IMG/VR virus record: IMGVR_UViG_3300044814_000107
Span: 3,224 to 67,223 of that record
Source of the DNA: a virus
Lineage: Duplodnaviria > Heunggongvirae > Uroviricota > Caudoviricetes
Direction: 5' to 3' (one strand)
Length of the DNA: 64,000 nt
The notes beneath the pieces are model-generated. The model was given only the letters and a program-made list of their open reading frames with translations, was not told the origin of the DNA and made no database searches. The position numbers and the translations under genes were made by a program. Positions 15,452 through 42,379 of the stretch are shown in pieces. Numbering within the stretch: position 1 is the stretch's first letter; each line of letters begins with the position of its first letter.

Positions 15452-15532
15452 GGTGCGGCCCCGGAAGGATTCGAACCTTCGACCGTCCCCTGAGACCAGC
15501 AGGGCGCTCTGTCCACTGAGCTACGGGGCCGC
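15452..15532 (-). tRNA. tRNA-Thr (anticodon GGT)
   Basis: Minus-strand sequence GCGGCCCCGTAGCTCAGTGGACAGAGCGCCCTGCTGGTCTCAGGGG...GGTTCGAATCCTTCCGGGGCCGCACC. The acceptor stem is a perfect 7 bp, the D-arm is canonical, the anticodon loop is CTGGTCT and the T-loop is GGTTCGAATCC. It lies inside the IS insertion. Confidence 0.75.
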
Positions 15533-18314: not shown

Positions 18315-21300
18315 CTACTCCTTGCGGGCGAGGACGCCGGAGACGTAGGTGGCGAACTGCGGAGGCAGCGGAGCCGGTGACTCGTCGTAGAGCGTCCGGG
18401 CCGCGTGACGCTCGACCTGCTCGAGCAGAACGGCTACCTGATCCGCGCGGAGGTTCCAGCTCGAAAGCGTCTCCTCGAGGACCCCGCGCGCGCCCGCGAT
18501 CAGCTCGCGCTCCGACGTTCCGAGTGCCCGCGTCCTCTCCGGCCCCAGCCGCGCGGCGACAATCTGGTTAGGTACGCCGTCGATCAGCTTCTCGCTGTCC
18601 CTGTCGCGCTTGGCGAGGGAGCGGAGTCGACTTCCCGCGAGCTCGCGGCAGCGCCGAAGCGCCAGGTCGGCCGCGCCGACGACCCTCGCCGCCTCGAGCG
18701 CCGACCCGACGACGCTCGAGATCGGTTCCTCGGCCGCGCTCTTCCCCGCGGGCGGTCCGGGCTCGACCTCGGCCCCGACTGCAGGCCCTTGCGACGCGCC
18801 CTCGGTGCCAGTCGCGGAGACGATCTCGCCGCCCTGCGGTTCGATGCCTCCCGACTTGATGGACGGGATGCCGTAGAGCGCGAGGCTGCCGTCGCGGACG
18901 GCGACGCCGATCATCTCGTTCAGCTCGTCGTCTGAGGGCGCGTCCACGTCGTCGAACCCCTTCGCCTTCCGCAAGGCTGCCTTCCCGATCGCGCGCGACT
19001 GGTAGGCGTCGAGCGCGTCCTTGCCGCGATCCGGATGGTTCACGACGTCGGTCGCGTCGTACTTGATCGCGAACTCCGCCCAGTCCTCCCGGCCGCTCGC
19101 GCGCATCTCGGGGCCGAAGTAGGAGGCGGTCAGGTCGTTCACGAGCTGGTTCGACGCCGGCTGGCCGTGAGCCTTCCACGTCTGGTCGTCGACGAGCCAT
19201 CCCGTGTTCCCGGTGAAGAAGACCTTGCCGTTGCGGCGCGCGAACCATGTGTGGTTCGGCGTGACTGGGCACCAGACGATCCCGTCGTAGAAGACGATCC
19301 GGTCGGTCGCGCCGTCAATCCCCTCCCGACGCGCGTGCTCCGCGGCCTTCACCGGCCGGACGCTCTTGGTCTCTAGCCCGTGAACTACGACTCCTCCACC
19401 GCTCTCGTGACGAGAAACGGCGCAACCCGCGAGGATGCACGCCAACTCGAAGGCGTCGAGTCCGTCGCCGTCCTTCTGCCAGATGTCGATGCGGCCCTGC
19501 GAGTAGTGCCAGCCGTCAGCCGCGCAGGAGACGGCGACGAAGATTTGGAGCTGTTCAAAGGTCAGCGCGCGGATGAAGTCGAGCGAGACGCGCTTCTTCG
19601 GCGCGACCACAAACAGATCCTTTGCGGCGTACTGGTTCAGTCGGAAGACGGTGATCGCGCCGCCGTGGCTCGACTCGTTCGACTGCTCGGCCTCGCGCCA
19701 GGCGGGCGCGGACGAGCCGCGCAGCGTGTCGCTGGCGGGGCCGTAGAGACGGCCGAGCAATTCGCGGATCTGCACGACCCGTTCTGGGTTCCTCGTGTGC
19801 GACTGAGAGATGGTCACGTTGCCGCCGATGCTCCCTTCCGTCCAGAACCAGGCGACCAGCCGCACGAAGTCGGACGAGTACGTCGCCTCCTCGGGCGCAG
19901 CGTGCGGCGCGGCGGTGATGATCGAGTGCTTCGCGGCCAGCTCAGCCGAGGTCGTCCACTCTCGGACAAACGGGATTCCTTCGCGCACCGCCCGCGACCG
20001 AGCTTGTGAACGCGCCGCCATGTCAAGAAGCCACGCCTCCTCCTCGGTTAGCTCTCCTCCGACCGTCACGACTATCGGATCGACGACTGCGTTCTCGTCG
20101 ATCGAGCCCGGACATAGGACGGGCCAGCGATGCGGAAGCGTCGTCAGCGAGGAGTGCGTCCGGCTCCGCAATTCGCGCATCGGCTCTCTCTGCGCCTCGG
20201 CGCGATAGATGTCCTGCACGGGCTGCCACTCCGACGCGCCAGTCTCATGGTTCAGCGTCAGAACCTCATCGCCCACGTCGAACTCGTTGTAGTGCCGCCA
20301 ACCCCCAGCCGTCAGGATCTCCGTCTCCTCGTCAACGCACCAGTGATTCGCGTCGGTCATCCCGAGCAGGATCTCGGGAGGCATATCGACTCCGAGCGCG
20401 ATCCGCTTCACGCACTCGTAGCGGAGGCCAGTCTCGGGGTAGAGCTGCGTCGGGTCGATGACCTGGATATGCCGGATCCCTCTCTCCACGGCTTCCGTCG
20501 AGCCGCGAATGACGAGCGGGACGATCTGCGACGCTGCGCCCTCGTTCGCGATCGGGGCCATCATCGCGTTCTTCAGGTCGCGCAGGAACGGGTCCTCCTC
20601 GATGTCCTCGCCGGGTGTGGCCTCGAGCGGCGCGTGCGAGAAGTCCTCCGAGATCGCGAGGATGCCGCTGCCGGCGAGCCGCGACCGGCCGCGCGCCCGG
20701 ACGGCGCGTGTCAGGATCAGTAGCTCCTCGCAGAGGTCGAGGACGCCCTTCATCGGCGAGTCGGCGAGCATCGAGTAGCGCGGGTGGCGGCGCCAGAGCC
20801 GGTAGACGACCGCTTGGTCACCAAGCGGCTCGAAGTCCTCGTCCGCAGCCTCGTAGAGCTGCTCGGCGGCCATCGACGGTGCCCTGTACCGCGTGTAGAT
20901 GCCGGACTGGACGCGAAGCTCGTCGGTCGAGAGCATCTCCCACTGCTCTTGGCCCGTATCGGGATCGGTCGAGCAGAGGAGGTACGTCTCGCCGGCGATG
21001 AACATGAGTCGGCCGTACGAGCTCAGCAGGCCCTCGCGACCGCCACCCGGATCTTGGATCCGCTCGAGTGCGGCGACCGCGTCTGGATCGTCGGTCTCCT
21101 CCCACTCGCCCTTCGCGTTCTTCTTCGCCGGGTAGAGCCGCAGGAGAGACATCATCCGCGCGTAGAACTGCGAGGCGTACCAGATTTCGCCGATCTGGTC
21201 GTAGTAGGAGAACGAGCGCGCCTGCCACGGCTGGATCAGCCGCCGCATCTGGTCGCTGTCTTGGTGGGTGACGCGGAAGCCGGCCGCAGTCAGCCCCTCG

Positions 21301-21365
21301 AGGCCCAGTCCGGAGGCGTTCGGATTACCCGTGCCGTAAGACTTCCGACGCGAGAAGAACCCCAT
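18315..21365 (-). CDS. portal protein interrupted by an intein (1016-aa precursor)
   Basis: The flanking (extein) regions resemble an SPP1 gp6-type portal (SFSYYDQIGEIWYASQFYARMM ... ETGLRYECVKRIALGVDMPPEILLGMTDANHW / TGWLVDDQTWKAHGQ). The intein shows block A (CVDEETEILTAGGW), block B (TLPHRW), a LAGLIDADG-like segment (LVAWFWTEGSIGGN) and blocks F/G (IVWCPVTPNHTWFARRNGKVFFTGN, followed by Thr). Confidence 0.8.
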   Translation of the reverse strand: MGFFSRRKSYGTGNPNASGLGLEGLTAAGFRVTHQDSDQMRRLIQPWQARSFSYYDQIGEIWYASQFYARMMSLLRLYPAKKNAKGEWEETDDPDAVAALERIQDPGGGREGLLSSYGRLMFIAGETYLLCSTDPDTGQEQWEMLSTDELRVQSGIYTRYRAPSMAAEQLYEAADEDFEPLGDQAVVYRLWRRHPRYSMLADSPMKGVLDLCEELLILTRAVRARGRSRLAGSGILAISEDFSHAPLEATPGEDIEEDPFLRDLKNAMMAPIANEGAASQIVPLVIRGSTEAVERGIRHIQVIDPTQLYPETGLRYECVKRIALGVDMPPEILLGMTDANHWCVDEETEILTAGGWRHYNEFDVGDEVLTLNHETGASEWQPVQDIYRAEAQREPMRELRSRTHSSLTTLPHRWPVLCPGSIDENAVVDPIVVTVGGELTEEEAWLLDMAARSQARSRAVREGIPFVREWTTSAELAAKHSIITAAPHAAPEEATYSSDFVRLVAWFWTEGSIGGNVTISQSHTRNPERVVQIRELLGRLYGPASDTLRGSSAPAWREAEQSNESSHGGAITVFRLNQYAAKDLFVVAPKKRVSLDFIRALTFEQLQIFVAVSCAADGWHYSQGRIDIWQKDGDGLDAFELACILAGCAVSRHESGGGVVVHGLETKSVRPVKAAEHARREGIDGATDRIVFYDGIVWCPVTPNHTWFARRNGKVFFTGNTGWLVDDQTWKAHGQPASNQLVNDLTASYFGPEMRASGREDWAEFAIKYDATDVVNHPDRGKDALDAYQSRAIGKAALRKAKGFDDVDAPSDDELNEMIGVAVRDGSLALYGIPSIKSGGIEPQGGEIVSATGTEGASQGPAVGAEVEPGPPAGKSAAEEPISSVVGSALEAARVVGAADLALRRCRELAGSRLRSLAKRDRDSEKLIDGVPNQIVAARLGPERTRALGTSERELIAGARGVLEETLSSWNLRADQVAVLLEQVERHAARTLYDESPAPLPPQFATYVSGVLARKE
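19206..20339 (-). mobile_element. intein (~378 aa) with a homing-endonuclease-like domain, in the portal gene
   Basis: Coordinates were derived from the amino-acid positions of intein blocks A through G (aa 343-720 of the precursor). The ending is unusual: GN followed by Thr. Confidence 0.65.
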
Positions 21366-21584: not shown

Positions 21585-21658
21585 TGGCGCCGGCGGGACT
21601 CGAACCCGCGACCTCCGGATTATGAGTCCGGCGAGCTACCGACTGCTCTACGGCGCGC
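21585..21658 (-). tRNA. tRNA-Met (anticodon CAT)
   Basis: Minus-strand sequence CGCGCCGTAGAGCAGTCGGTAGCTCGCCGGACTCATAATCCGGAGGTCGCGGGTTCGAGTCCCGCCGGCGCCA. The anticodon loop is CTCATAA. The characteristic AGSSPAG peptide appears in the overlapping spurious ORF. Confidence 0.75.
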
Positions 21659-23121: not shown

Positions 23122-23462
23122 GGGTCCCAGTTCTTACTGACGAGGCCGACGGCGGCGTTCAGCGCGAACGCTGCGAGGGCGTAGAGCGTCCAGCGCGGCT
23201 CCTCGAGCCAGGCGACGTAGACGCCGCAGCCGACCCAGAAGCCGGCGCACCAAGGACAGCCGAGGAACTTCGCGAGTACCGGTCGGGTGTAGGTGCCGCG
23301 CGGGTCGTCGTTGTAGACGCGGACGCCCTTGTTCCGCTCGTTCCGGCCAGAGAGCCAGTGGCGGAGCCTAACGGCGTACGGCCACTCATCCCAGCCGATG
23401 AGTCTCACGAGACGAAAGGTCCCGAGCGCGAGAACGAGCGCGACCCACGGCGACGGGATCAC
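23118..23462 (-). CDS. membrane protein with a CPWC motif (DUF1360-like)
   Basis: Track ORF 23118..23507, trimmed to the GTG (VIPSPW) that overlaps the epimerase stop as GTGA. The product contains FLGCPWCAGFWVGCGVYVAW. Confidence 0.5.
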   Translation of the reverse strand: MIPSPWVALVLALGTFRLVRLIGWDEWPYAVRLRHWLSGRNERNKGVRVYNDDPRGTYTRPVLAKFLGCPWCAGFWVGCGVYVAWLEEPRWTLYALAAFALNAAVGLVSKNWDP

Positions 23463-24345
23463 GAGACGAGCTCCGAGAGTCCGACTTCGAGCGGACGCGG
23501 GTTCCACCCGCGCAGGCCCGCGCGGATCTTCGTCGAGTCGAGACAGCTCGATCGAACCTCTCCCGGCCGCGCCGCGACGAACTCATGGCGCGACCCGAGC
23601 CGCGTAAGCAGCGAGAGAATCCGCGTCTCCGCTCCGGTGCCGACGTTGTAGACGCCGGGCAGAAGATGGCAGGCGTCGATCGTCGCCGACGCGACGTCGG
23701 ATACGTGGACGAAGTCGCGGGTCTGCTCGCCGTCGCCGTAGACGACCGGGACGAGACCCCGTTCGATCTGGTCGAGGAAGATCGCGACGACGCCGCCTTC
23801 GGCGTCCGCTCGCTGACGAGGCCCGTAGACGTTCGCGTAGCGCAGGATGACGTGACTGCAGTCGAGGCCGAGGTAGCCCTCGCCGGCGAGCTTCGAGACG
23901 GCATAGGGGGAGACTGGCTTCGGAAGGTCGATCTCCAGCGCCGGCCCTCGACAGTCGCCGTACATCGCTCCGCCCGTCGATGCGAAAACGACCTTCGCCT
24001 CGCAGAGAGCGGCCGCCTGCGCAACGCGGAGAGTGCCGAAGACGTTCGTTCGCGCGTCCTCGAACGGATCGACGACGCTGCGGGTTACGTCGGTCTGCGC
24101 CGCCAAGTGATAGATGACCTCGGGCTCGGCCTCGATGATCGCTTCGGCCGCCTCTACGGTCGCGACGTCCCGCTTCACGAAGTAGGCGGCCGACCCTACG
24201 AGGTTCTCGAGCCTGCCGGTCGAGAGGTTGTCGATCACGAGGACGTATTCGCAGCCGCGCTCGAGAAGCTGCTCGACGAGGTGCGATCCGATGAAGCCTG
24301 CGCCGCCGGTGACGACAGCGCGGCGCGGCGTTCGGCGAGAGTCCA
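23459..24345 (-). CDS. NAD-dependent epimerase/dehydratase (GalE-like)
   Basis: A Rossmann motif (VVTGGAGFIGSHLVEQL) and a catalytic YxxxK motif (YAVSKLAGE) are present. The start was approximated at the GTG of VDSRR. Track ORF 23459..24499. Confidence 0.75.
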
Positions 24346-24419
24346 CGCCCGAAGGATGCCACGAACGGCGAGAGAGCGCGGAGGGAGCCTCACGGCCCCC
24401 CTCCGCCAGGTTGGTTCCT

Positions 24420-24884
24420 CTACGCCGACGGCGTGAGGATGATCTCGCCCGAGGTCTCCTCGCTCGCGGCGACGGTGAGCGTCGCTGCGAGGTGGACATC
24501 GACGCCGTCCGAGCTGCGCGTCGAGTCGCAGGAGATGACGGTCGCGCCGAGCGCGGTCGTCAGGGTGACGACGGCGGACAGGCCGTCCGCAGCCGCCTCG
24601 ACCGTCGCGACGCTCTCGTCGCTGGACGCCCAGACCGGCACGTCGTCCGGCGCGGTCGGGTTACCGTCCACGTCGAGGAACGACGCCGCGGCGCTGAGCG
24701 GAGAGCTGGTGTCGAGGACCTGAAGGTCCATGATGGTGACTCCTTCCAGTTGATGCCAGACTATGAATCCGAGGAGGGGCGGCCCTGGCGCAGCCAACTC
24801 CACCTGTCGCGCGAGTTGCCGTAGCAGTCGCGCTACGACCGTGCCGTTGGCCTCGATGAGTTGCCGCCAAAATCCCTTGGTCAT
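24420..24884 (-). CDS. bacterial Ig-like (Big_2-type) domain protein
   Basis: The C-terminal ~100 aa have an Ig-like pattern (VWASSDESVATVEAAADGLSAVVTLTTALGATVISCDS). An alternative internal start MDLQVLD at 24731 is preceded by GGAAGGAG. Confidence 0.55.
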   Translation of the reverse strand: MTKGFWRQLIEANGTVVARLLRQLARQVELAAPGPPLLGFIVWHQLEGVTIMDLQVLDTSSPLSAAASFLDVDGNPTAPDDVPVWASSDESVATVEAAADGLSAVVTLTTALGATVISCDSTRSSDGVDVHLAATLTVAASEETSGEIILTPSA

Positions 24885-24930
24885 GACTCTCCCTCTCGAA
24901 CGCTAGACGGCCTGGCGCGATTCTAGTCCT

Positions 24931-25218
24931 TTACGACGCCCGGCGCAGCCGACCGATCAGCGCGTCGACCTCGGTGAGGTCACCCGGCCACGACCTGCGG
25001 TGCCGCATATGGCTGATGAACGAGTCCGCTTCGATGATCAGCGAGAGCAGCGCCGAGCATTCGCCGGCGCTCAGAGGCGCGCCGCCGATGATGTCCTGCA
25101 CGCCGTCCTTCAGGAGCGCGATCGCGTTCCGTTCGTCGGCTAGATCCGCCACGGTCTCCCCTCCCATCCGTCGGGCTTCGAGGCGAGCCCGTGGACGGGC
25201 CTGCCGATCCGCCACCAC
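24931..25218 (-). CDS. hypothetical protein
   Basis: Protein-like C-terminal 78 aa. The start is uncertain (25218 or 25167). Confidence 0.35.
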   Translation of the reverse strand: MVADRQARPRARLEARRMGGETVADLADERNAIALLKDGVQDIIGGAPLSAGECSALLSLIIEADSFISHMRHRRSWPGDLTEVDALIGRLRRAS

Positions 25219-25382
25219 TCGTCCCAGGAGAGATTCGTCGCGATCAGCGCCTTGAGACGCAGGTCGCCTCCGAACTCGGACGGGCCGAGATCGCTGGTCG
25301 CGAACAGCGCGGCTTCGATGTCGTCGTGGACATCCTCGAGCGTCTTCCCCTGCGGGGTCACCTGCTGCTCGTCGTCACCCAT
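25140..25382 (-). CDS. hypothetical small protein
   Basis: Track ORF 25140..25613, trimmed to MGDDEQQ, which is preceded by GGGAGG. Confidence 0.4.
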   Translation of the reverse strand: MGDDEQQVTPQGKTLEDVHDDIEAALFATSDLGPSEFGGDLRLKALIATNLSWDEWWRIGRPVHGLASKPDGWEGRPWRI

Positions 25383-26995
25383 CGCGTGCCTCCCTTCAGC
25401 CCGCCCCTTACCGGGGCGGGGTCGTAGATCAGCTCGGCGTCGGCCGCGGGGTCGCGGCGGACGAAGTGCTCGTGGTAGCTCGCGCGGATCGCCTCCTCGG
25501 GCGCGCCGTCGTAGACGCGCCAGCCGGCGCCATACATCGCGGGGAGGTTCGTCGCGGCGTAGGCAGCGCGGCCGTTCGTGATCTTCCGACAGTTCTTCGA
25601 GGCATACCCCCACGCGACGTAGTTCCCGGTAGCCGTGGTGAGACTGATGACTTCGCTTTCGCCGTCCTCTTCAACCGCAACAATCTTGTCTGGGTGGCCG
25701 ATCGTACCGCCGATCCCGCGACTGGCGAGCATTTGGTCTGCCCACGTGCTTCGCTTCTTCGGCCGGACGAGATTGGCGAATCTGACAAAGGTTTCGCGGC
25801 CACCGACTAGATGGACACCCATTTCCGCCTTGCGGTACGGGAAGCCGAAGTGGTCGAGCGCTTCGCACAGCTCCTCGTAGAGGAAAGGGTTGGCGGCCGC
25901 GCTCTGTGCGATGTGGTTTCGGTGGCCCTCGCCGTCGAACATCCCCGCGAGCCAGCCGGCTAGCCAAGCATCATCGTAGTCAGGCGACGGGAACGACGGA
26001 GTTATGACGTGGGTTAGCGACCGGCCAATGGCCGCCGTCTTGAACACTCCGCTTCCCCGTACATAGGTAGCGTCGCCAACAATGACCTCGTTTCCCTGCC
26101 CCCATCTTCCTATCCCCTGCCCCCGGCCTTGCTCTCCGCCGACAGCGATGGGGAAGCGATCCGGCCCGCGAGTACCGTAGAAGTGCTGCCGCCAAAGGTG
26201 ATCAGGCGAGCAGCGAAGACTTCGGCCGGACTCAAACTCCACACGAACGATTGGCGACTGTCGTACCGAGACGTCCGTTACAGCGGATGGCAGTAGATGG
26301 ATCTTCGTTCGCGCAGAGGAGTGTCCCCAGCCGATCACCTCGTCACCCACTCGGACATCGCCTAGATGGCGAAAAGTGAGATCGCCCATCCAGATCGGTG
26401 CCTCTGGCGGATTACAGAACTGCGCCTCGGAGCGCCACGAGAAGTGCCGGACGTTCAGGGGCGCGTCGATCGTCAGCGTGCCGCCGGTCGTCTGGGCTCC
26501 GTGGTTTCCCATCTCGATCGAGAGGTCGGGCCTCAGTCGGCACGCGACCTTCACCATCCCGTGTTTCTTCTGCCGCCAGCAGAGCTGCGCGACAGGATTC
26601 GCCGCCGGCTCGTCGACATCGGTCGCGAAGTGGTTGAAGACGAGAGCGCGCAGGATTCCGACGTCGGGGCCGAGACCGCCGAGGTAGTCGCGGATCGGCA
26701 GGTCGCAGTCGCCGTGGTGCCAGATTTCGTCGGCGTCGCAGGGCAGCACCCAGCGGTGGCCGCGCGCGAGGGCCTCCATCGCGAGCGCGGTCGTCTTCCT
26801 GTCCTGGTAGTAGCCGATCTCGGGATCGTCGCGCAGTTCGACCGGCAGCCGCTCGAGGATCTCGCGCGTCCCGTCGCTCGAGAGGTTGTCGGCGACGATG
26901 ACCTCGTCGACGTGCCAGAGCAGGTGCCGAATCGTCGTCTCGACAATATCCGCCTCGTCTTTGACGAGCATGACCGCGCAGACCGTGCCGCTCAT
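25358..26995 (-). CDS. GT2-family glycosyltransferase interrupted by an intein (545-aa precursor)
   Basis: The flanking (extein) regions carry GT-A motifs: MLVKDEADIVETTI, VADNLSSDGT and a DxD motif (PCDADEIW). The insert runs from CNPPEAPIWM to SLTTATGNYVAWGYASKN and is followed by Cys. It contains block B (RCSPDHLW) and a LAGLIDADG motif (WLAGWLAGMFDGEGH). Confidence 0.8.
   Translation of the reverse strand: MSGTVCAVMLVKDEADIVETTIRHLLWHVDEVIVADNLSSDGTREILERLPVELRDDPEIGYYQDRKTTALAMEALARGHRWVLPCDADEIWHHGDCDLPIRDYLGGLGPDVGILRALVFNHFATDVDEPAANPVAQLCWRQKKHGMVKVACRLRPDLSIEMGNHGAQTTGGTLTIDAPLNVRHFSWRSEAQFCNPPEAPIWMGDLTFRHLGDVRVGDEVIGWGHSSARTKIHLLPSAVTDVSVRQSPIVRVEFESGRSLRCSPDHLWRQHFYGTRGPDRFPIAVGGEQGRGQGIGRWGQGNEVIVGDATYVRGSGVFKTAAIGRSLTHVITPSFPSPDYDDAWLAGWLAGMFDGEGHRNHIAQSAAANPFLYEELCEALDHFGFPYRKAEMGVHLVGGRETFVRFANLVRPKKRSTWADQMLASRGIGGTIGHPDKIVAVEEDGESEVISLTTATGNYVAWGYASKNCRKITNGRAAYAATNLPAMYGAGWRVYDGAPEEAIRASYHEHFVRRDPAADAELIYDPAPVRGGLKGGTRWVTTSSR
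25592..26416 (-). mobile_element. intein (~275 aa) with a LAGLIDADG homing endonuclease, in a glycosyltransferase gene
   Basis: Positions were derived from aa 194-468 of the precursor. The penultimate residue is Lys rather than the usual His, and the +1 extein residue is Cys. Confidence 0.65.
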
Positions 26996-27681
26996 CAGCG
27001 CTTCTCCACGAGCTCGCGGACGGCGGCGCGGCCGATAGCGGCAGCGTCGCGGTATTCCGCGAGGATCGTGAACTGCTCGGTGTAGCCTTCGCCTCCGGGG
27101 ATCGACTGTGGGAGTCGCTCGTGGAAGCTATGCAGAGCCAGTCCGAGGACGCGACGTGCCGGGGTCTCGCAGAAGGCGTCGCAGGCGTATGCGAACGCGC
27201 CGTCGTCGCCGCCCCAGAGTCCGAAGCGCTCGTCGTAGCCGTGCGCTCGTTCCCATGTCGAGCGGGAGAAGACGGTGAGGAGGCCGCTGCCGCCGTGGCC
27301 GAACTGCTGGCAGTCCGCCTCGCTGAAGGTAGGCAGCCCGCGCCAGAGTGAATCGTGGAGACGGACGGTCGCGGCCCGGTCGAGGTATGCGTAGTCGCTG
27401 AAGGGGACGACGAGCCCGTCGTGCTCGCTGGCGAGTTCGATCGCCAAGTCGAGCTGCGGCAACGGCGCGACGACATCCGGGTCGAGTTGGACGATCAGGT
27501 CGTGCGACGCGGCCGAGATGGCGGCGTTCAGGCCGCGCGCCTTAGTGAACGGCTCCGGGGCTCCGACGATGAACTCGGCGCTCGGGTAACGGCTGCGCCA
27601 CCACCGCTCTACGAACTCGAACGCGCGGAGGCGGTCGGGGTCGCCGAGATCCTTCCAAGCGGTGACGATCGAGAAGTTCAC
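26995..27681 (-). CDS. glycosyltransferase-like protein (GT-A fold)
   Basis: Track ORF 26995..27834, trimmed to a GTG preceded by AGGAGGAGGG that overlaps the upstream stop (GTGA). The product contains FSIVTAWKD, LIVQLDPDV and GLWGGDDGAFAYA. Confidence 0.55.
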   Translation of the reverse strand: MNFSIVTAWKDLGDPDRLRAFEFVERWWRSRYPSAEFIVGAPEPFTKARGLNAAISAASHDLIVQLDPDVVAPLPQLDLAIELASEHDGLVVPFSDYAYLDRAATVRLHDSLWRGLPTFSEADCQQFGHGGSGLLTVFSRSTWERAHGYDERFGLWGGDDGAFAYACDAFCETPARRVLGLALHSFHERLPQSIPGGEGYTEQFTILAEYRDAAAIGRAAVRELVEKR

Positions 27682-28412
27682 GCCCTCCTCCTGAGGTCGT
27701 CGCGCTCGGCGATCCGCCACTGGTAGATGTCCGGGTGGACGAGAGAGAGCGGCAGACCATCCGGACTCGGGATCTCCGCGTAGCCCGTCGATGCCTGGAT
27801 GTCGGTGAAGAAGAGAAGGTTCTGCCGGTACCACGGCTCGACGAGTTCATCGTTCCAGAATTCGCTGCGGATGAAGTCGTGCGCGTAGAGGCCGAACGTC
27901 TCGAACTTCTCGGCCCAATACGCCGGCCACTGTTCGTTCAGGTGGCCGTGTCCGCCCTGGCCGGGGATCGCAGCGGAGAAGACGATGCGCCGCGAGACGG
28001 CACAGAGTCCCGCGACGAGGTCGTCGGCGAGCTCAGCCGGCAGGTGTTCGGCTACCTCGAGGCAGACAGCGAGGTCGAAGGTGGGACTGCCCCCGTGGAT
28101 ATGCGCGATCTCGGCGCGCTCGTCGACGACGCGGCTGGCCCAGCTCCGGGAGCGCAGATCGACCGGGAGGAAGTCGATGCGGTGGGGATCGGGGGAGCCG
28201 AACGCCTCGAACTTCCAGACGTCGATCGAGTCGTCGGCGATGAGGACGTCGCAGCCGCGGTCGAAGAACGCGCGGCCCCACCAGCCTTCGCCGCCACCGA
28301 TGTCAGCGACGGTCTTCGGGAGGATCAGCTCGTAGAGGCGTGGGACGACCGCCTCGGCGCTGCGCTGGCATCCCTCGCGAATCCGTTCGTAGACCTCCGG
28401 CGAGAACGTCAT
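27678..28412 (-). CDS. class I SAM-dependent methyltransferase
   Basis: Motif I (VADIGGGEGWWG), an acidic loop (CDVLIADDS) and a post-I motif (DLAVCLEVAEHLP) are present. Confidence 0.75.
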   Translation of the reverse strand: MTFSPEVYERIREGCQRSAEAVVPRLYELILPKTVADIGGGEGWWGRAFFDRGCDVLIADDSIDVWKFEAFGSPDPHRIDFLPVDLRSRSWASRVVDERAEIAHIHGGSPTFDLAVCLEVAEHLPAELADDLVAGLCAVSRRIVFSAAIPGQGGHGHLNEQWPAYWAEKFETFGLYAHDFIRSEFWNDELVEPWYRQNLLFFTDIQASTGYAEIPSPDGLPLSLVHPDIYQWRIAERDDLRRRA

Positions 28413-28647
28413 CGCAAAACCAACCAGGCGAAGAAGACGATCCAGAGAGTGACAAGCGCGCCGATCGCGGCGCCGAGGATGAGCGTTCCTTTGACGAGGT
28501 TACGGTAGACGTCGCGGTTCCAGCGGAAAACAGCGACCGAGTCGGAGACCCACTGGTCGAGAACCGCAGCGATGCCCTGGCGTCTGCCGTGCTGGTAGCG
28601 CTCGGCCAGCCTGACCAAGCCGCTGGTGAGGGCGTCGCGAGCCATCA
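28409..28647 (-). CDS. small membrane protein
   Basis: Track ORF 28409..28759, trimmed to MARDALTSG. The ATG overlaps the upstream stop. It has a C-terminal transmembrane helix. Confidence 0.45.
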
Positions 28648-29310
28648 GTACCCGGCCCCCGAGCGGACGCCGATGTGCTCGACCTGCGGCTCGCCGTCGC
28701 CCCAGACTCCGAAGCGGTACCCCTGACGGACGAGCTCTAGTCCGAACCGACCTTCGCACTCTGGAAGTCCGTCGTCAGGCCAAGGGTTGGAGCGCATGAA
28801 CTCTGTACGCATGAGATTCGGGTTAGTCGTTAGGTACGAGCGGTGGCGGAGCCAGCCGCGCATCGCCTCGTACTCGCCGGGGCGCGACTCGACGAGTCCG
28901 CCGGCGGCGATCTCCTGCTCGCTCACGGCGTCCCGCATCAGCGCCATCTGCGCGAGCGTGTGGTCGGAGTCGAGGACTGCCGCGAGCTCGTGGAGGTCGA
29001 GGCGGTCGAGGAAGAGGAAGTCGTGCTCGAGCCAGAAGACGTATGGGATGTCGGAGTCGCACGCCCACGTCCAGAGCTGCCCGGTCGCGCGACAGAAGCC
29101 GACCTGCGCGGGACCGCCACGCAGCGAATAGCCGTCGCGGTGGCGGACGGTCCACTCGCTCTCGAGGCTCCGGAAGATGCCGTCGCCGAGGATCCGGACG
29201 TCGGCCGGTCGTGGCGACACGTTCTCGAAGAACGACTCCAGCGTCTCGTCCAAGGTCGACATCCGGCCGTGCGTGAGGACGGCGAGCTGGTAGCGGATCG
29301 CTTCCTCCAC
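28645..29310 (-). CDS. hypothetical protein, possibly a sugar-modifying enzyme
   Basis: The GTG start lies 2 nt after the CGACGACCGTAG variant of the start-associated motif. The product is protein-like (YVFWLEHDFLFLDR). Confidence 0.5.
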   Translation of the reverse strand: MEEAIRYQLAVLTHGRMSTLDETLESFFENVSPRPADVRILGDGIFRSLESEWTVRHRDGYSLRGGPAQVGFCRATGQLWTWACDSDIPYVFWLEHDFLFLDRLDLHELAAVLDSDHTLAQMALMRDAVSEQEIAAGGLVESRPGEYEAMRGWLRHRSYLTTNPNLMRTEFMRSNPWPDDGLPECEGRFGLELVRQGYRFGVWGDGEPQVEHIGVRSGAGY

Positions 29311-29311
29311 G

Positions 29312-29323
29312 CGACGACCGTAG
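29312..29323 (-). promoter_or_regulatory. start-associated motif variant (CGACGACCGTAG), 2 nt 5' of the GTG of 28645..29310
   Basis: One mismatch from CTAC-N4-GTAG. Confidence 0.4.
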
Positions 29324-29342
29324 CGGATCGAGCAGACGGCGT

Positions 29343-29825
29343 CTACCAGCTACCGCGCGTATCGACGCTGGCCGACGGCCATTGCTCGTCGGTCAGCGCG
29401 GCGACGTAGAACCGTTCAGGCGCAAGTTCGGGATGCTGGTAGCCGAACTCGGGACGCTCGAAGAAGCCGGCAAGCGCCGGGTCGGCGAACAGCGCCGCGA
29501 AACTCAGCGTCCGGTGGCTCGTAATCTCCTCGTGCGCGCTCCGCAGCAGAGCCGTCGCGTACCCCTTCCCGCGATGGTCAGGGTCGGTGCAGACGTTCAT
29601 CACGGCTCCGACGCGGACGACCGTCGCCGCGACTCCGATGCCGGCGCCGGGCGCGCTCGACGCGCGGACGAGGACGCTGCGGTAGGCGATCCCGACGAGC
29701 GCCCGAACGTGAACGATCTGCGGGTTCTCGTCGTCGAACTCCTGCTGGACGAGGTACTTCTCCGGGCGAGGCAGGTCGTCGACGGGGCGGCCGAAGCAGA
29801 GCTCGAGGAGCTCGTCGCGATTCAC
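29343..29825 (-). CDS. GNAT family N-acetyltransferase
   Basis: GNAT motif A is present (VCTDPDHRGKGYATALL). Confidence 0.7.
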   Translation of the reverse strand: MNRDELLELCFGRPVDDLPRPEKYLVQQEFDDENPQIVHVRALVGIAYRSVLVRASSAPGAGIGVAATVVRVGAVMNVCTDPDHRGKGYATALLRSAHEEITSHRTLSFAALFADPALAGFFERPEFGYQHPELAPERFYVAALTDEQWPSASVDTRGSW

Positions 29826-29959
29826 GCTGCGAGCCTACCGAGGATCGCTCGGACGTCCCCGACTTTCAGGCCGAGCCGCTTCGCGATCATCCGCGGCGGC
29901 ATCCCGTTTCTCGTGAGGCTGAGAACGGCCTGCTCGCGTTTAGCCTGCGGCGATTTCAT
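29822..29959 (-). CDS. small HTH DNA-binding protein
   Basis: Track ORF 29822..30037, trimmed to MKSPQAKREQAVLSLTRNGMPPRMIAKRLGLKVGDVRAILGRL, which is a LuxR- or sigma-region-4-like helix-turn-helix. Confidence 0.45.
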   Translation of the reverse strand: MKSPQAKREQAVLSLTRNGMPPRMIAKRLGLKVGDVRAILGRLAA

Positions 29960-30327
29960 CCCGGCGCCGGCGCAGGGAACCGCTCGGCGGCGCGGAGCTT
30001 GATCGGCTTTGGCATCCGCAGTTTCACCTTCGCCCACTCGTGCTTACGGCGGGGTTCGTCGTCGTCTCCGGTGATCCAGTCGTCGATGCTCCAGACGAGG
30101 TAGGCGACGTTTACGACGATGCACGGGAGCGCGAGGTCGGCGATCGTGAGCAGGGGCGCAGACGTGAGCAGCGCGATCTGGGAGGCCCATACCCGGAGAT
30201 ACGTCCAGCGGAGTCGGCGCCCTAGAGGACGACTGACGTGACGGCCGCGACCGCGGCGGCGCGTGGGGCATCCGACGATGGTTCCGAGTATCGCGAGTTG
30301 GGTCGCGCCTGTGATGAGCCAGATCAT
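29956..30327 (-). CDS. membrane protein
   Basis: Three hydrophobic segments. The stop overlaps the downstream start. Confidence 0.4.
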   Translation of the reverse strand: MIWLITGATQLAILGTIVGCPTRRRGRGRHVSRPLGRRLRWTYLRVWASQIALLTSAPLLTIADLALPCIVVNVAYLVWSIDDWITGDDDEPRRKHEWAKVKLRMPKPIKLRAAERFPAPAPG

Positions 30328-30551
30328 CGCGGCGTGCGTCCCTTCTTCGCGTTACCCAGCATGGGGGTTCGCGGCGTCCGTCCGTGCGTCTTCTTCTGGT
30401 AGGCGCCGCAGCAGTACCAGCGGTCAGGGTTCGAGATCGACGGCCCCCGGCTCGTCTCGCAGCCGCAGGCGAGCGTCACCGTCGCTATCGGCTCCGCCGA
30501 CAGCCCGACGAGCTTCTGCTTCGCGTCCTTCGACCTCGGGAAGTACGTCAC
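30324..30551 (-). CDS. small Cys-rich protein
   Basis: Contains CGCETS...WYCCGAY. The gene is overlap-coupled to its neighbours. Confidence 0.3.
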   Translation of the reverse strand: MTYFPRSKDAKQKLVGLSAEPIATVTLACGCETSRGPSISNPDRWYCCGAYQKKTHGRTPRTPMLGNAKKGRTPR

Positions 30552-30717
30552 CGGAGCCGGACCGCCTCGATCTTCTCGAGGACGCCCTCGTCCTCCTCGT
30601 TGAAGTCGTGCGCGACGATCTCGTCGGGGATCGCTCGGAGTGCGGAGACGCTGCTAGCGACTTCCGCCCAGGAGACGAGGACGGTCAGTTCGTCGTCGGT
30701 GAGTAGGAGCATCCGCT

Positions 30718-31032
30718 TCACGCGGGGCTCTTCGTCTCGAGGAAGAGCGGCCCGGTATCGTCGGTCAGGACGAGACCGTGGCGCATCCCGACCGCCATCT
30801 CGCCCGAGCGCTCGACGCCGAACTGCTCCATCGCGGCCTTCAGCGACTCGAGCCGCCAGTGCGCCCCGAGCAGACCGAGCGGCGTAGAGCGGAAGGTGTG
30901 GACGCAGGGTCCCGGCCCCTCCGTCCCGCCGGGGTCGTAGTCCTCGGTGATCGCGAGCATCGCGACCGCTTCGTCAAAGCTGACCGCGACAGGCTTCTCA
31001 GCCGTCACGATCGTCACCGCGCGAGAACGCAT
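30718..31032 (-). CDS. hypothetical protein
   Basis: The 104-aa product is protein-like. Confidence 0.45.
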   Translation of the reverse strand: MRSRAVTIVTAEKPVAVSFDEAVAMLAITEDYDPGGTEGPGPCVHTFRSTPLGLLGAHWRLESLKAAMEQFGVERSGEMAVGMRHGLVLTDDTGPLFLETKSPA

Positions 31033-31336
31033 CGACAGCGAGAGCGGCCGCTTCCTCGTCGTCCGAGTTGCCCTTCTCCCACACGGGCGAGATCCAGAGG
31101 GCGTACTCGATCAGGAGAGCGCGTTCCCGTTCCCGCGCTCGCTCGACCTCGGCGGTCCCGGCGCGCTCGCGATACTCGGTGATCGCGCGGTCGATGCCGT
31201 CGCCGAGCAGCGCCCCCGTCGTACCGACGTAGAAGACGCCGTCCTTCTGCCAGGCGAAGAGGTAGATCCCAGCGACGAGACCCAGCTCGTACGGCGAGAG
31301 CGGCTGGTGCTTCTCGATGGCCTCTTCGTATCTCAT
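30998..31336 (-). CDS. hypothetical protein
   Basis: The ATG lies 2 nt downstream of the CTACGGTCGTAGCG motif, and there is no separate Shine-Dalgarno sequence. Confidence 0.5.
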   Translation of the reverse strand: MRYEEAIEKHQPLSPYELGLVAGIYLFAWQKDGVFYVGTTGALLGDGIDRAITEYRERAGTAEVERARERERALLIEYALWISPVWEKGNSDDEEAAALAVDAFSRGDDRDG

Positions 31337-31338
31337 CG

Positions 31339-31350
31339 CTACGACCGTAG
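31339..31350 (-). promoter_or_regulatory. start-associated motif CTACGGTCGTAG(CG), 2 nt 5' of the ATG of 30998..31336
   Basis: Exact 12-mer. No separate Shine-Dalgarno sequence. Confidence 0.55.
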
Positions 31351-31533
31351 CCTACCCGAGTCAGTCGCGCCCATCCGCTCGTTCGCCTCGTCGATCTCGG
31401 CGTTCTCGCGCTCGAGCTGACGGACGTGTTCGAGGTTGGAGAGGCGCCGCTGCCGACGGCGCCTCCTCCACATGAGCCCGATCAGGATGGCCCCGAAGTT
31501 CAGGGTGCCGGCCAGATCGAGAACGAGTCTCAC
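31339..31533 (-). CDS. small membrane/coiled-coil protein
   Basis: An N-terminal transmembrane helix is followed by an Arg-rich stretch and a coiled coil. Confidence 0.3.
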   Translation of the reverse strand: MRLVLDLAGTLNFGAILIGLMWRRRRRQRRLSNLEHVRQLERENAEIDEANERMGATDSGRLRS

Positions 31534-31537
31534 CGTC

Positions 31538-32443
31538 TTACTTCTTCGCCGCCGAGTCGCCGAGCGTCCCGAGGAACGCGGGACAAGAGGCGTTCGCGCA
31601 GTAGATGACCTCGGCCTTCGGGCTCAGATGCTCGAGCGCCCGGAGCTTGAGAACCTCGGGGAAGTTCTGCAGCGCGTGACCGACGAGCGAGATCGACGCC
31701 GCCTGACCCTCGGCGAACTGGATGGCCTGCTGCGCCTCGGCGTGCGCCTGCGCGACCTTCGCCTGCGCCTGCTGCGCCTTCTGGACCTGTACCTGCTTGG
31801 CGGTGATCGCGTTCTGATACGCCTGCGAGAAGCCGATGTTCTGGATGAAGAAGTCGGTCACCGTGATCGAGTACGGGGCGAGTTCCTGCTTCAGACGTGC
31901 GAGAGTGTCGCGGCGGAGCTGCTCCCGGTGGTTCGTGATGTCGATCGTGTGGTAGGTCGCGGTGACCTCCTTGAAGTCCTGCAGGACCCGCGAGTCGACG
32001 AGCTTCTGCTTCCAGCTCGGCCCGACGTTCTTGTAGAGGGTGAAGACGTGCTGCGGGTCGACCTCGTAGTTGATCGCCAGGTTCGCCGTGATCTCCTGCT
32101 GGTCGTTCGTGACCGCGGAGTTCTCGGCACCGAGGACGAAGTCCTCGCGCTGGATCTGTACCGACTCCTTGACGATCGACGTCCAGGGAGCCTTGGCGAT
32201 CAGACCGGGCTGGGTCTTTACGCCGGTCAGTTTCCCAGCGAAGTTGTAGACGAGGCCGACCTGCCCCGTCCCGAGCAACGCGAACGAGGAGGCGAGCGTA
32301 AGAACGACCTCGGCGAGGAGCGCGAGGATAACAGTGATTGCGCCACCAAAGCGGCCGTCGGTGCCCTTCGCGGCTGCGACGAAGACGAAGAGACCGATCG
32401 CTCCGATGACGACGAAGATGACGGTGAGTACGAGCCAGACCAT
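31538..32443 (-). CDS. SPFH/Band-7 (prohibitin/HflC-like) domain membrane protein
   Basis: An N-terminal transmembrane helix precedes an SPFH core (GQVGLVYNFAGKLTGVKTQPGL...PWTSIVKESVQIQ...) and an AQ-rich coiled coil. GAAGGAGGG precedes the ATG. Confidence 0.85.
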   Translation of the reverse strand: MVWLVLTVIFVVIGAIGLFVFVAAAKGTDGRFGGAITVILALLAEVVLTLASSFALLGTGQVGLVYNFAGKLTGVKTQPGLIAKAPWTSIVKESVQIQREDFVLGAENSAVTNDQQEITANLAINYEVDPQHVFTLYKNVGPSWKQKLVDSRVLQDFKEVTATYHTIDITNHREQLRRDTLARLKQELAPYSITVTDFFIQNIGFSQAYQNAITAKQVQVQKAQQAQAKVAQAHAEAQQAIQFAEGQAASISLVGHALQNFPEVLKLRALEHLSPKAEVIYCANASCPAFLGTLGDSAAKK

Positions 32444-32467
32444 TGACCCTCCTTCGGGGGATTAGGA

Positions 32468-32479
32468 CTACGACCGTAG
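32468..32479 (-). promoter_or_regulatory. CTACGGTCGTAG motif, 24 nt 5' of the SPFH gene start
   Basis: Exact 12-mer, followed by GAAGGAGGG and then the ATG. Confidence 0.5.
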
Positions 32480-32601
32480 TAGTTCGGTCGGACGGCGTTT
32501 AGGGGATGACACCGAGGCCGAGCTAGACTGCCCCGCATGATCCTCTGGATTCTCGTAGTGGCCGTGATCGTGGTGCTGCTCGTGCTCCTCGCCAAGCACC
32601 T

Positions 32602-32853
32602 TTAGGCGGTACGCCACTTCCGGCGCTCGTGTGCGGCGATCTCGCGCGGGACAGCCTCACGATCCTGCTTCGCCTGGATCGCCGCGCGATGGATCAGCGA
32701 GCGCGCGAGCTTCGACGTCCTGCAGAGGCTACCTCGCGCGAAGACGAGCAGCGACCAGAAGACGATCCCGAGAGCCAAGCGGAAACGGATGATCTGGCGG
32801 CTGCTGAACTTCTCGGCGAGGAGACGGGCGAGCGGCGGATCAGGCTGCGGCAT
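32602..32853 (-). CDS. small membrane protein
   Basis: Track ORF 32602..32949, trimmed to MPQPDPPLARLL, which contains a transmembrane helix. Confidence 0.35.
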   Translation of the reverse strand: MPQPDPPLARLLAEKFSSRQIIRFRLALGIVFWSLLVFARGSLCRTSKLARSLIHRAAIQAKQDREAVPREIAAHERRKWRTA

Positions 32854-42226: not shown

Positions 42227-42379
42227 TCTCGGTCTCCAATCGGCAGAGGGAACGGGACGTCGCGGACGAGATGTGGGAGTCGGATCGGGCGAGCGTCACG
42301 CCCATGCTCCGTTGCGAGGTAACCGACCTAGCCCTCCGGTCCAGCGACAGCGGGGAGACTACCTGACGCAGCGGTCGTA

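Follow-up and report, generated by a model that had tools for sequence, protein, structure and literature searches.

The window, a stretch of 64,000 nt analysed over its full length, derives from an uncultured, high-GC phage of the actinobacteria type. A Pfam scan placed a sugar-modification gene cluster on its minus strand (23459..33541), surrounding a glycosyltransferase gene referred to here as gene A; a second glycosyltransferase gene, gene B, is found 10 kb from gene A, and the two belong to one phage glycosylation gene cluster. A first-pass annotation had described both as open reading frames (ORFs) interrupted by related inserts, and we recovered the two ORFs with in-frame inserts of 275 aa in gene A and 269 aa in gene B. 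The features are as follows.

23459..24499, minus strand: NAD-dependent epimerase/dehydratase (Pfam scan)
25358..26995, minus strand: gene A precursor, 545 aa; ORF for a GT-A-fold glycosyltransferase (Glyco_tranf_2_4 / Glycos_transf_2) with an intein
26417..26995, minus strand: N-extein A (aa 1-193), with a DAD motif at aa 87-89 and an RHFSWRS motif (His184)
25592..26416, minus strand: intein A (aa 194-468, 275 aa), starting at Cys1 and followed by Cys +1
26192..26215, minus strand: intein A block B, RCSPDHLW (SPDH)
25922..25966, minus strand: intein A LAGLIDADG-like motif, WLAGWLAGMFDGEGH (WLAGMFDGEG)
25592..25654, minus strand: intein A blocks F/G, ...TGNYVAWGYASKN
25358..25591, minus strand: C-extein A (aa 469-545 plus stop), first residue Cys +1
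26995..27834, minus strand: glycosyltransferase, Glyco_transf_7C-like (Pfam scan)
27678..28412, minus strand: methyltransferase (Pfam scan)
29343..29825, minus strand: GNAT acetyltransferase (Pfam scan)
32840..33541, minus strand: glycosyltransferase, GT2 (Pfam scan)
36412..37926, minus strand: gene B precursor, 504 aa; ORF for a divergent GT-A-fold glycosyltransferase with an intein
37438..37926, minus strand: N-extein B (aa 1-163), with S90-D91 and VVGTNDLGN, ending in YGHWY
36631..37437, minus strand: intein B (aa 164-432, 269 aa), starting at Cys1 and followed by Cys +1
37195..37218, minus strand: intein B block B, RCTPDHRW (TPDH)
37024..37059, minus strand: intein B LAGLIDADG-like motif, GWLAGIYDGEGS (WLAGIYDGEG)
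36631..36693, minus strand: intein B blocks F/G, ...SGNYIAHGYASRN
36412..36630, minus strand: C-extein B (aa 433-504 plus stop), with Cys +1 and the invariant D-x-E (CDDEF), then VEHLHP

A comparable cluster, in which the gene A orthologue lacks an intein, is present on a related contig (L003) of metagenomic origin. Among GenBank phages, a near-identity DNA search with 13 kb of the window returned no match, and neither did a tblastn search with extein B.

Removal of the insert from either gene leaves a continuous protein like its full-length intein-free homologues. Joined extein A recovered 335 homologues, the best of which is 261 aa long and 90% identical, and 116 of the best 120 are 240 to 299 aa in length; joined extein B recovered 570 (best 68% identical), with 118 of the best 120 at 200 to 259 aa. 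Family alignments are gap-free at both junctions, and the insertion is precise at the single-residue level. At the DNA level, an intein-free allele (L002) shares ~89% nucleotide identity with the N-extein of gene A and ~86% with its C-extein, and at the junction only the two codons past the insertion point differ (GCG TCG in the allele versus TGT CGG in gene A). Position +1, Cys in the window, is Leu or Val in intein-free homologues of gene A.

The conclusion that both host genes encode GT-A-fold glycosyltransferases, continuous once the insert is removed, is supported by profile searches and structural models. Glycosyltransferase profiles recognised joined extein A above their cutoffs (PF13704, 41.1 bits against 27.5; PF00535, 28.0 bits against 23.3), while joined extein B came in just below (PF13641, 26.5 bits against 27; PF00535, 19.8 bits against 23.3), with precomputed PF00535 assignments for some of its homologues, so that the proposed agreement of the exteins with glycosyltransferase family models held for A and fell narrowly short for B. 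A model of spliced A (pLDDT 94.6, pTM 0.90) aligned with the S-glycosyltransferases SunS and ThuS over ~250 columns (E 2e-10), in a fold that spans the splice junction; the model of precursor B matched GT-A enzymes through its N-extein part only (~165-175 columns, E 2e-5). With homologues of full length, gap-free junctions and a continuous GT-A fold in the spliced A model, the exteins do rejoin as the first-pass annotation had proposed. Among solved structures, those nearest to extein A are GmaR by sequence, and SunS and ThuS by both sequence and fold, which only suggests, by analogy, that enzyme A may use a protein as its acceptor. D87-A88-D89 of extein A is invariant in the 53-sequence alignment of its family, in which the window protein is itself a row and therefore keeps every invariant column by construction; the same holds for window protein B in its own alignment. 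The gene B family has a consensus DD, whose first Asp is found in 90% or more of the homologues that lack an intein and is Ser in window protein B (S90-D91).

Both inserts are class 1 inteins. Each carries the catalytic set of Cys1, (S/T)xxH, terminal Asn and Cys +1, and they share an identical start over their first 10 residues (CNPPEAPIWM; 30 of the first 36 nucleotides identical), block B and a LAGLIDADG motif, as had been claimed. The C-terminal block, TTATGNYVAWGYASKN in intein A and TTSSGNYIAHGYASRN in intein B, runs into junctions ...KN|C and ...RN|C; the reported common ending thus stands for GYAS(K/R)N followed by Cys, but not for 'TTATGNY', which the two do not have in common. Overall, the inteins are 34 to ~40% identical as proteins (BLASTP over the full length, 34%, E 1e-42) and 52% identical as DNA. 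A profile of the family, run against a six-frame translation of the window, found exactly these two copies (E 3e-107 and 3e-95).

The sole curated intein model with a significant match was NCBIfam NF038136, through its intein segment alone, to which the inserts align at profile positions ~74-335 (E 5e-12 and 5e-9). Pfam Hint (12 bits, cutoff 29.7) and Intein_splicing (11.3 bits, cutoff 35.8) were sub-threshold for both inserts, as were TIGR01445 (21.2 and 14.8 bits, cutoff 24.5) and LAGLIDADG_3 (12-14 bits, cutoff 22.5); since all Pfam and TIGRFAM intein and LAGLIDADG matches fell below their thresholds, none was relied upon for identity. Whereas the suggested check against Hint and LAGLIDADG profiles gave nothing above cutoff in Pfam, fold comparison matched solved inteins. 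In Foldseek, precursor B as modelled by AlphaFold (pLDDT 88.7) had its best PDB fold matches in PhoVMA, PI-SceI and TliVMA (probability 1.00), followed by the DnaB, DnaE and gp41-1 mini-inteins, BIL (bacterial intein-like) and Hedgehog Hint domains and then GT-A enzymes, with TM-scores of 0.62-0.77 when normalised to the mini-inteins. Its top 50 matches in BFVD were mostly known intein-host types (terminases, ribonucleotide reductases, helicases, polymerases and 'Hint domain' proteins), and the family profile recovered the gp41-1 intein, a BIL domain, the DnaB intein and PI-SceI from the PDB (E 2e-4 to 1e-2). Antibody Fab chains returned from the PDB by a single-sequence search with intein A were set aside as spurious, the match being to a Gly-rich insertion specific to A. 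Homology, fold and extein restoration together bear out the original identification of the inserts as inteins.

The two copies belong to one large, mainly phage-borne intein family that has spread into many unrelated host proteins. It comprises 1450 cluster representatives at E<=1e-3, with inteins of ~240-275 aa and the signature C-N-P-P-E-A-P-I-W-M ... T-G-N-Y-V-A-W-G-Y-A-S-K-N | C. Hosts among 66 representatives include SNF2 helicases (28), PAPS reductase (5), M4 peptidase (3), polymerases, terminases, a portal and GT2 enzymes; about 10 of the representatives examined lie in the gene B family and one in the gene A family, and two (P0267 and P0332) are inteins in a third, canonical GT2 family. 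The GT2 gene of the window at 32840..33541 was considered as an empty site for an intein of the P0267 type and rejected, the extein kinship being only distant. Cys1, terminal Asn and the TxxH of block B are each kept in 120/120 family members, the His of that block and the Cys preceding it being invariant in the family alignment, and residue +1 is Cys in 106, Ser in 13 and Thr in one. The penultimate residue is K in 93 members, R in 13, S in eight, H in five and E in one, and the block F His is also absent, with Gly at position -11 in our own register against canonical blocks F/G. Thus, the first-pass annotation was right that penultimate His is replaced (Lys in A, Arg in B), but the two copies are not atypical on that account, given that 106/120 members have K or R. 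Mycobacteriophage class 1 inteins have often lost the penultimate His, and one such case, the RDF intein, splices to completion with Gly in that position (PMC5050341).

Each insert has one LAGLIDADG motif, and the family conserves G-x-x-D-G-E-G, a Gln, an Asn and F-x5-P usually followed by K-R; within the motif G-x-x-D-G is invariant and the next Glu is kept in at least 90%, against a mean family identity of 41%. In the model of precursor B, the order of secondary structure (LAGLIDADG helix 286-299, strands 304-309, 331-335 and 344-349, helices 314-326 and 352-363) is compatible with one LAGLIDADG core domain. Matches of the family profile to PDB endonuclease domains were not significant (PI-PfuI, E 0.09; I-MsoI, E 1.4). 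The phage inteins of one earlier study (PMC5050341) carry two LAGLIDADG motifs. With a single such domain the endonuclease, if active, would probably be dimeric, and given the single motif it could also be inactive or need a partner.

The first-pass annotation had further proposed that the genes are paralogs, interrupted at an equivalent position, with intein homing between them. The divergence it had described outside the inserts is real (BLASTP between joined extein A and B flanks, E 0.46, no detectable sequence similarity). A profile-profile comparison of the exteins aligned just the first ~100 residues with 0.7% probability, so that genes A and B have only the GT-A fold in common and are not detectable paralogues. 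Nor did the comparison bear out an equivalent position. The residues around the two junctions bear no relation to each other (RS-x-(E/D)-Q-(F/Y) | (L/V)-R-K-I-x-N-G in gene A, Y-x-H-x-(F/Y/W) | (V/C)-D-D-E-F-V-Q-T in gene B), and the reconstituted 60-nt target sites share 19/60 bases. For both extein families, profile alignments to PDB entries end before the junction is reached, and motif and secondary-structure order, rather than superposition, suggests that the insertion sites differ. Recent homing from one gene to the other within this genome, between paralogues with equivalent target sites, would account for two inteins of one family with the same first 10 residues, 10 kb apart in a single cluster, but we judge it extremely improbable. 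The CNPPEAPIWM start is conserved family-wide and is the commonest start (30/120 members), and dozens of inteins in other genomes are closer to either copy than the copies are to each other: among 122 family members intein B ranks 98th in the list of intein A, and A ranks 84th in that of B. Inteins at the gene B site form their own group across many metagenomes, with 50-63% identity among them, and include all 11 nearest relatives of intein B, at the same site in gene B orthologues; the nearest relative of intein A likewise occupies the gene A site of another genome. As the two inteins are ~40% identical and each is nearest to inteins at its own site elsewhere, homing between genes A and B is unsupported. 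The two copies instead represent distinct lineages that diverged long ago, each associated with its own site, and they arrived independently.

We therefore consider it highly probable that each GT-A-fold enzyme is interrupted beside invariant residues by a class 1 intein with a LAGLIDADG-type domain that splices, the two inteins representing long-diverged lineages. That the inserts are instead non-splicing Hint-domain insertions, leaving the genes inactive or their products cleaved into fragments like those of bacterial intein-like domains, appears very unlikely to us. The sub-threshold scores of the curated intein models, the presence of BIL domains among the fold and profile matches, and the absence of both canonical His residues of the C-terminal step would agree with such insertions; yet the Cys1, TxxH, terminal Asn and +1 nucleophile kept by all 120 family members examined, residue-exact insertion into intact ORFs, exteins that hold every family-invariant residue (by construction, as the window proteins are in the alignments) and the splicing of phage class 1 inteins that lack the penultimate His, such as RDF, all argue for splicing. 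A domesticated or decaying state, with splicing kept, the endonuclease dead and inheritance vertical, is a possibility that we take more seriously while still thinking it rather unlikely. The single motif, the weak LAGLIDADG_3 score and the wide divergence of carriers at the gene B site would fit such decay, but in a family of otherwise low identity, residues of the endonuclease domain, among them the acidic one in the motif, vary little or not at all, and for a related intein of C1 phages there are indications that it spread horizontally in recent times (bioRxiv 10.1101/2025.01.02.630785). Moreover, the 80 best gene B loci in IMG/VR (80/80) are intein-free, and the same is true of the top 120 homologues for either extein; a few intein-bearing alleles scattered among intein-free ones is a pattern typical of ongoing gain and loss. 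Third-position GC content (GC3) of the inteins also lies well under that of the exteins, at 0.69 in intein A versus 0.91 in each of its exteins and 0.66 in intein B versus 0.87 and 0.77, which would fit an origin outside this genome.

If the splicing inteins follow class 1 chemistry, Cys1 would form a thioester after translation, the thioester would be transferred to Cys +1, and cyclisation of the terminal Asn would release the intein, joining the exteins into an enzyme A of ~270 aa and an enzyme B of ~235 aa within the glycosylation cluster. Spread could proceed through cleavage of intein-free alleles by the endonuclease during co-infection, followed by gene conversion. Because both insertions adjoin invariant residues, neither glycosyltransferase is at all likely to be active before its intein is spliced out, and control of virion glycosylation, should the phage carry it out, would then lie with the inteins. 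One might speculate that the CNPPEAPIWM...GYASKN family is a mechanistically distinct intein type (no canonical His, a penultimate K/R and a dimerising single-domain endonuclease) and that in this phage, with two inteins that interrupt active sites, each with a Cys1/Cys +1 pair, splicing might serve as a redox or time switch that delays virion glycosylation until late infection, a reading we hold to be unlikely. For intein biology the gain is incremental, a known kind of element in a host type missing from the phage surveys consulted: sugar-transfer enzymes are added to phage intein targets that so far have been almost all DNA-handling or virion-assembly proteins. One intein family in at least three GT-A-fold families, at three sites, represents repeated extein switching, and with over a thousand sequence clusters of compact inteins whose splicing, if any, dispenses with the usual penultimate His, it is a reasonable source of splicing tools.

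None of the phage and prokaryote intein surveys consulted, including one of 784 actinophage inteins in 19 host proteins, lists a glycosyltransferase as host. A literature search for inteins and glycosyltransferases together found no relevant paper; in a Haloferax paper on glycosylation, the only endonucleases mentioned are free-standing ones. Chitin synthase is a member of CAZy family GT2. Inteins are known from the chitin synthases (CHS) of fungi (Green, Novikova and Belfort 2018, PMC5784728), so that glycosyltransferase hosts are not unprecedented overall, and the earlier view of the host as unusual is upheld for phages only. The CHS inteins, of which there are four Pezizomycotina cases, share a glycosyltransferase host with inteins A and B, but reside in eukaryotic nuclear genes, group with glutamate synthase inteins and interrupt a large, membrane-bound processive synthase unlike enzymes A and B; we found no evidence that they are members of the CNPPEAPIWM family.

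PI-SceI and the archaeal VMA inteins carry two LAGLIDADG motifs. They are the best fold matches to the precursor B model (E 4e-7 to 1e-6) and have the same layout, in which the endonuclease domain splits the splicing domain, but sequence identity is ~10% and they are 360-450 aa long, compared to 269-275 aa and a single motif here. The one LAGLIDADG helix and short alpha/beta unit of our inteins are presumably like those of the single-motif homodimers of the I-CreI type, and we take the F-L-x4-P-x-K-R stretch of the family to resemble the end of the I-CreI core. The intein segment of the Rv2578c-family radical SAM protein (NF038136) aligns with both inserts over their entire length. Its host, a bacterial protein, is a different one, and since nothing outside the intein matches, the score for the full protein is low (35-45 against a cutoff of 700 bits). 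Also among the closest known systems is the intein of CharlieB gp252 and other cluster C1 mycobacteriophages, which we equate with the Pham3880 intein of PMC5050341 and whose host has been called 'terminase-like' (Kelley et al. 2016, PMC5050341) and, apparently for the same protein, 'putative integrin-like' (Gosselin et al. 2025, bioRxiv 10.1101/2025.01.02.630785). It is a member of the same family, 38% identical over the full 269 aa, starting with CNTPDAPVWM, with a TxxH block, one AAWLAGVYDGEGH motif and the ending NNYIAWGFASSN|C, and as here its penultimate residue is not His. Like inteins A and B it is class 1 and phage-borne, but its host is unrelated to glycosyltransferases and belongs to cultured Mycobacterium phages, whereas inteins A and B interrupt glycosyltransferases of an uncultured high-GC phage.

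Two minus-strand glycosyltransferase genes in the window, A and B, each carry an in-frame insert that the first-pass annotation, which gave the same coordinates for both open reading frames, took for an intein.

25358..26995, minus strand: ORF A, 545 aa
25592..26416, minus strand: intein A, 275 aa (ORF A aa 194-468), starting CNPPEAPIWM, with Cys directly after
36412..37926, minus strand: ORF B, 504 aa
36631..37437, minus strand: intein B, 269 aa (ORF B aa 164-432), starting CNPPEAPIWM, with Cys directly after

Catalytic residues, the intein segment of NCBIfam NF038136, phage relatives, predicted fold and family profile all agree that the inserts are inteins. They align with each other over their full length (BLASTP, 34% identity, E 1e-42) and are the only copies found by an intein-family profile in the six-frame translation of the window. 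Both have the complete set of class 1 catalytic positions (Cys1, (S/T)-P-D-H in block B, terminal Asn and Cys+1), and the intein motifs previously named were found in both, except that the ending 'TTATGNY...' is wrong for intein B, which has TTSSGNYIAHGYASRN. Curated Pfam and TIGRFAM intein models all scored the inserts under threshold; the intein segment of NF038136 aligned end to end with both (E 5e-12 and 5e-9). A tblastn search with intein B matched 179 phage records (144 Mycobacterium, 17 Gordonia, 15 Ralstonia), the best being cluster C1 mycobacteriophages such as CharlieB, whose gp252 contains an insert that starts CNTPDAPVWM and ends NNYIAWGFASSN before a Cys, resembling the CNPPEAPIWM start and following Cys of the window inserts. 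We take this insert to be both the Pham3880 intein described by Kelley et al. 2016 (PMC5050341) and the one that Gosselin et al. 2025 assign to a 'putative integrin-like protein'. The AlphaFold model of precursor B (pLDDT 88.7) best matched the PhoVMA, PI-SceI and TliVMA inteins in the PDB, then mini-inteins, BIL and Hedgehog Hint domains, and after these GT-A glycosyltransferases; its top viral match was a protein of Mycobacterium phage Sauce, and the remaining named top matches were mostly known intein-host protein types. Searched against PDB sequences, a 24-sequence family profile recovered the gp41-1 intein, a BIL domain, a DnaB intein and PI-SceI (E 2e-4 to 1e-2). The element is of a standard type, a class 1 intein with a LAGLIDADG-type domain.

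Once the inserts are removed, the exteins rejoin into glycosyltransferases, as shown by full-length intein-free homologues, alignments with no gap at either junction and a fold match for spliced A. Joined extein A has 335 homologues (116 of the best 120 are 240-299 aa long; the top one has 261 aa and 90% identity) and joined extein B has 570 (118 of the best 120 are 200-259 aa long; top identity 68%). The insertion sites read R-H-F-S-W-R-S-x-(E/D)-Q-(F/Y) / (L/V)-R-K-I-x-N-G in A and Y-x-H-x-(F/Y/W) / (V/C)-D-D-E-F-V-Q-T in B, where the slash marks the junction, and the junction residues Arg and Lys at the A site and Tyr, His, Asp and Glu at the B site are invariant in 121/121 sequences. In another metagenome, gene A has an allele free of the intein (locus L002), which shares ~89% DNA identity with the N-extein and ~86% with the C-extein and whose junction departs from that of the window solely in the first two codons downstream of the insertion, GCG TCG (Ala-Ser) versus TGT CGG (Cys-Arg). 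Extein A scores above the Pfam GT2 thresholds and extein B just under them. The spliced A model (pLDDT 94.6, pTM 0.90) had fold matches to SunS and ThuS, two protein S-glycosyltransferases, spanning ~250 columns (E 2e-10); by sequence, the closest solved relative of extein A is the flagellin glycosyltransferase GmaR. Both glycosyltransferases look to be under selection because the window proteins keep the family-invariant columns, which, as rows of the extein family alignments, they keep by construction; since the enzymes look selected, we infer that the inteins must splice. ORF B has a Ser at aa 90 (37657..37659), where no fewer than 90% of the intein-free members of its family have the first Asp of a DD motif; at this position the intein-bearing GT-B orthologues P0002, P0003 and P0007 have Cys, Ser and Thr, and P0001 keeps the Asp.

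Among 1.84 billion cluster representatives, intein A had 1450 matches at E<=1e-3 and 137 at E<=1e-30. Pfam hosts among 66 representatives were SNF2-family helicases (28), PAPS reductase (5), thermolysin-type peptidase (3), family A and B DNA polymerases, terminases, one portal and GT2 enzymes. Local profiles placed ~10 representatives in the GT-B family (homologues of gene B) and one, P0254, in the GT-A family (homologues of gene A), at the same sites as in the window; P0267 and P0332, among the representatives examined, have a third, canonical GT2 family as host, with the site upstream of its ...GGY...EDWDLW region. The signature of 120 extracted inteins is C-N-P-P-E-A-P-I-W-M-(G/A)-D ... T-x-T-G-N-Y-V-A-W-G-Y-A-S-K-N. 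Their penultimate position holds Lys (93), Arg (13), Ser (8), His (5) or Glu (1). The non-His penultimate residue that had been called atypical is thus real in both copies but a trait of the family (Lys/Arg in 106/120) and nothing peculiar to them. Class 1 inteins of mycobacteriophages have often lost the penultimate His, and one of them splices well with a Gly in its place (PMC5050341). In our own register against canonical blocks F/G the His of block F is absent too, with Gly at position -11.

The first-pass annotation further proposed that the inteins sit at equivalent positions in paralogous genes and homed from one to the other. Paralogy is undetectable, as the joined flanks show no similarity (BLASTP E 0.46), and an equivalent position was not borne out. 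The A junction, within the first turn of helix 190-205 in the spliced A model, comes after a long strand whose end is the invariant His184 (RHFSW); the B junction precedes an invariant D-x-E at a helix start in the precursor B model, with a long strand ending E-H-L-H-P after it. The usual order of GT-A motifs is DxD, acidic catalytic motif, C-terminal His. From motif and secondary-structure order we infer that the sites differ, intein B lying before the acidic motif and intein A after the His; the third GT2 family has its intein at yet another site. The sites are alike only in the adjoining invariant, probably active-site, residues, and insertion next to an active site is usual for inteins. 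Homing between the genes is likewise unsupported, with dissimilar exteins, target sites that share 19/60 nt when reconstituted, and inteins each closer to own-site inteins elsewhere. Inteins A and B are 40% identical over 240 shared columns; the 11 nearest relatives of B (50-63%) are all at the GT-B site and the nearest of A is the GT-A-site intein P0254 (54%), and among 122 family members ranked by similarity B is 98th in A's list and A 84th in B's. Inteins A and B are two old, site-specific lineages of one family, in line with the 'extein switching' reported for inteins of actinophages (bioRxiv 10.1101/2025.01.02.630785). GC3 is 0.69 in intein A and 0.66 in intein B, both far under the exteins (0.77-0.91), and intein-free alleles dominate, accounting for the best 120 homologues of either extein and for all 80 best of 339 IMG/VR GT-B loci, occupancy counts from these best 120 or 80 matches being lower bounds. 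Low GC3 and an intein-free majority fit sporadic horizontal gain.

Each insert has one LAGLIDADG motif, not two, and the endonuclease, if active, would be dimeric. In the precursor B model, helix 286-299 (the LAGLIDADG motif) is followed by strand, helix, strand, strand and helix, a predicted order that would fit one LAGLIDADG core domain. Residues invariant across the family fall within this part (G-x-x-D-G, with a Glu directly after it in at least 90% of members, a Gln, an Asn and F-x5-P, usually followed by K-R), which argues that the endonuclease domain is under selection. Pfam LAGLIDADG_3 was sub-threshold on the inserts, and profile matches to endonuclease domains in the PDB were not significant. 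In intein A, block B and the LAGLIDADG motif have an extra Gly/Arg-rich segment (GGEQGRGQGIGRWGQGNEVIVGD...) of ~25-40 aa between them (aa ~272-320 of ORF A, ~26036..26182), absent from intein B; P0254 also carries an insertion there. This segment could be an added DNA-recognition region, and it was the source of spurious antibody matches of intein A in the PDB sequence search.

The window comes from a high-GC phage (~67%), encodes a major head protein, portal, large terminase and helicases, nearly all genes being on the minus strand, and has no close DNA-level relative among GenBank phages; its capsid protein shares 33-39% identity with the capsid proteins of an Actinomycetia phage and of large Arthrobacter, Microbacterium and Gordonia phages. 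Proteins A and B, each a 'hypothetical protein' in the JGI/IMG annotation of a 92,052-bp contig, are encoded in a cluster where Pfam also identifies an epimerase/dehydratase, two more glycosyltransferases, a methyltransferase and an acetyltransferase; in a similar cluster on a related metagenomic contig (L003), the GT-A orthologue has no intein. Other features are as follows.

15455..15530, minus strand: tRNA-Thr (GGT)
16901..18307, minus strand: 468-aa ORF, 2'-5' RNA ligase/LigT-like phosphoesterase (aa 89-216) fused to a Mu F-like head morphogenesis domain (aa 321-440)
19206..20339, minus strand: ~378-aa insert in portal gene (18315..21365, 1016 aa)
21585..21657, minus strand: tRNA-Met (CAT)
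40602..42668, minus strand: phage-encoded Ro60-like protein, TROVE (E 1e-38) and Ro60 vWA (E 9e-58) domains
43169..43251, minus strand: tRNA-Ser (CGA)
43912..43997, minus strand: tRNA-Ser (GCT)
46686..47786, minus strand: ~367-aa insert in large terminase gene (45396..48002, 868 aa)

Rfam agrees on 2/4 tRNA genes; run on the window at gathering thresholds, it detected nothing resembling a Y RNA gene, Y RNAs being the partners of cellular Ro60 proteins. The terminase insert divides the Walker A motif (GRGFGK / ... THN / TVSAAQW), belongs to a different family from the glycosyltransferase inteins and lacks a starting Cys; the block B Trp (ADHQW), block F Cys (MYCVAV) and Thr before the terminal HN make up the 'WCT' pattern of class 3 inteins. 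Two LAGLIDADG motifs are present in the insert (YVLGYWLGDGT and LLQGLMDSDGH), with Pfam LAGLIDADG_3 above cutoff (27.5 bits) and Hom_end below (18 bits, cutoff 21.1). The portal protein matches PHROGs in two stretches, and its insert (...DANHW / CVDEETEILT ... VFFTGN / TGWLVDD; penultimate Gly), with boundaries drawn by reading the sequence alone and no match in a Pfam scan, reads like a candidate fourth intein. Four inteins in 64 kb, if true, would make this an intein-rich phage.

Glycosyltransferase hosts are absent from the 2016 mycobacteriophage intein survey, a 2015 survey of bacterial and archaeal inteins and the 2025 actinophage survey (784 inteins, 19 host proteins), and a phrase search found no paper linking inteins with glycosyltransferases. 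Glycosyltransferase hosts do have a precedent elsewhere in biology, the inteins known from fungal chitin synthase (PMC5784728). The intein family already has described members, the Pham3880 intein of C1 phages and the NF038136 intein, and what is new here is the type of host protein, a glycosyltransferase.
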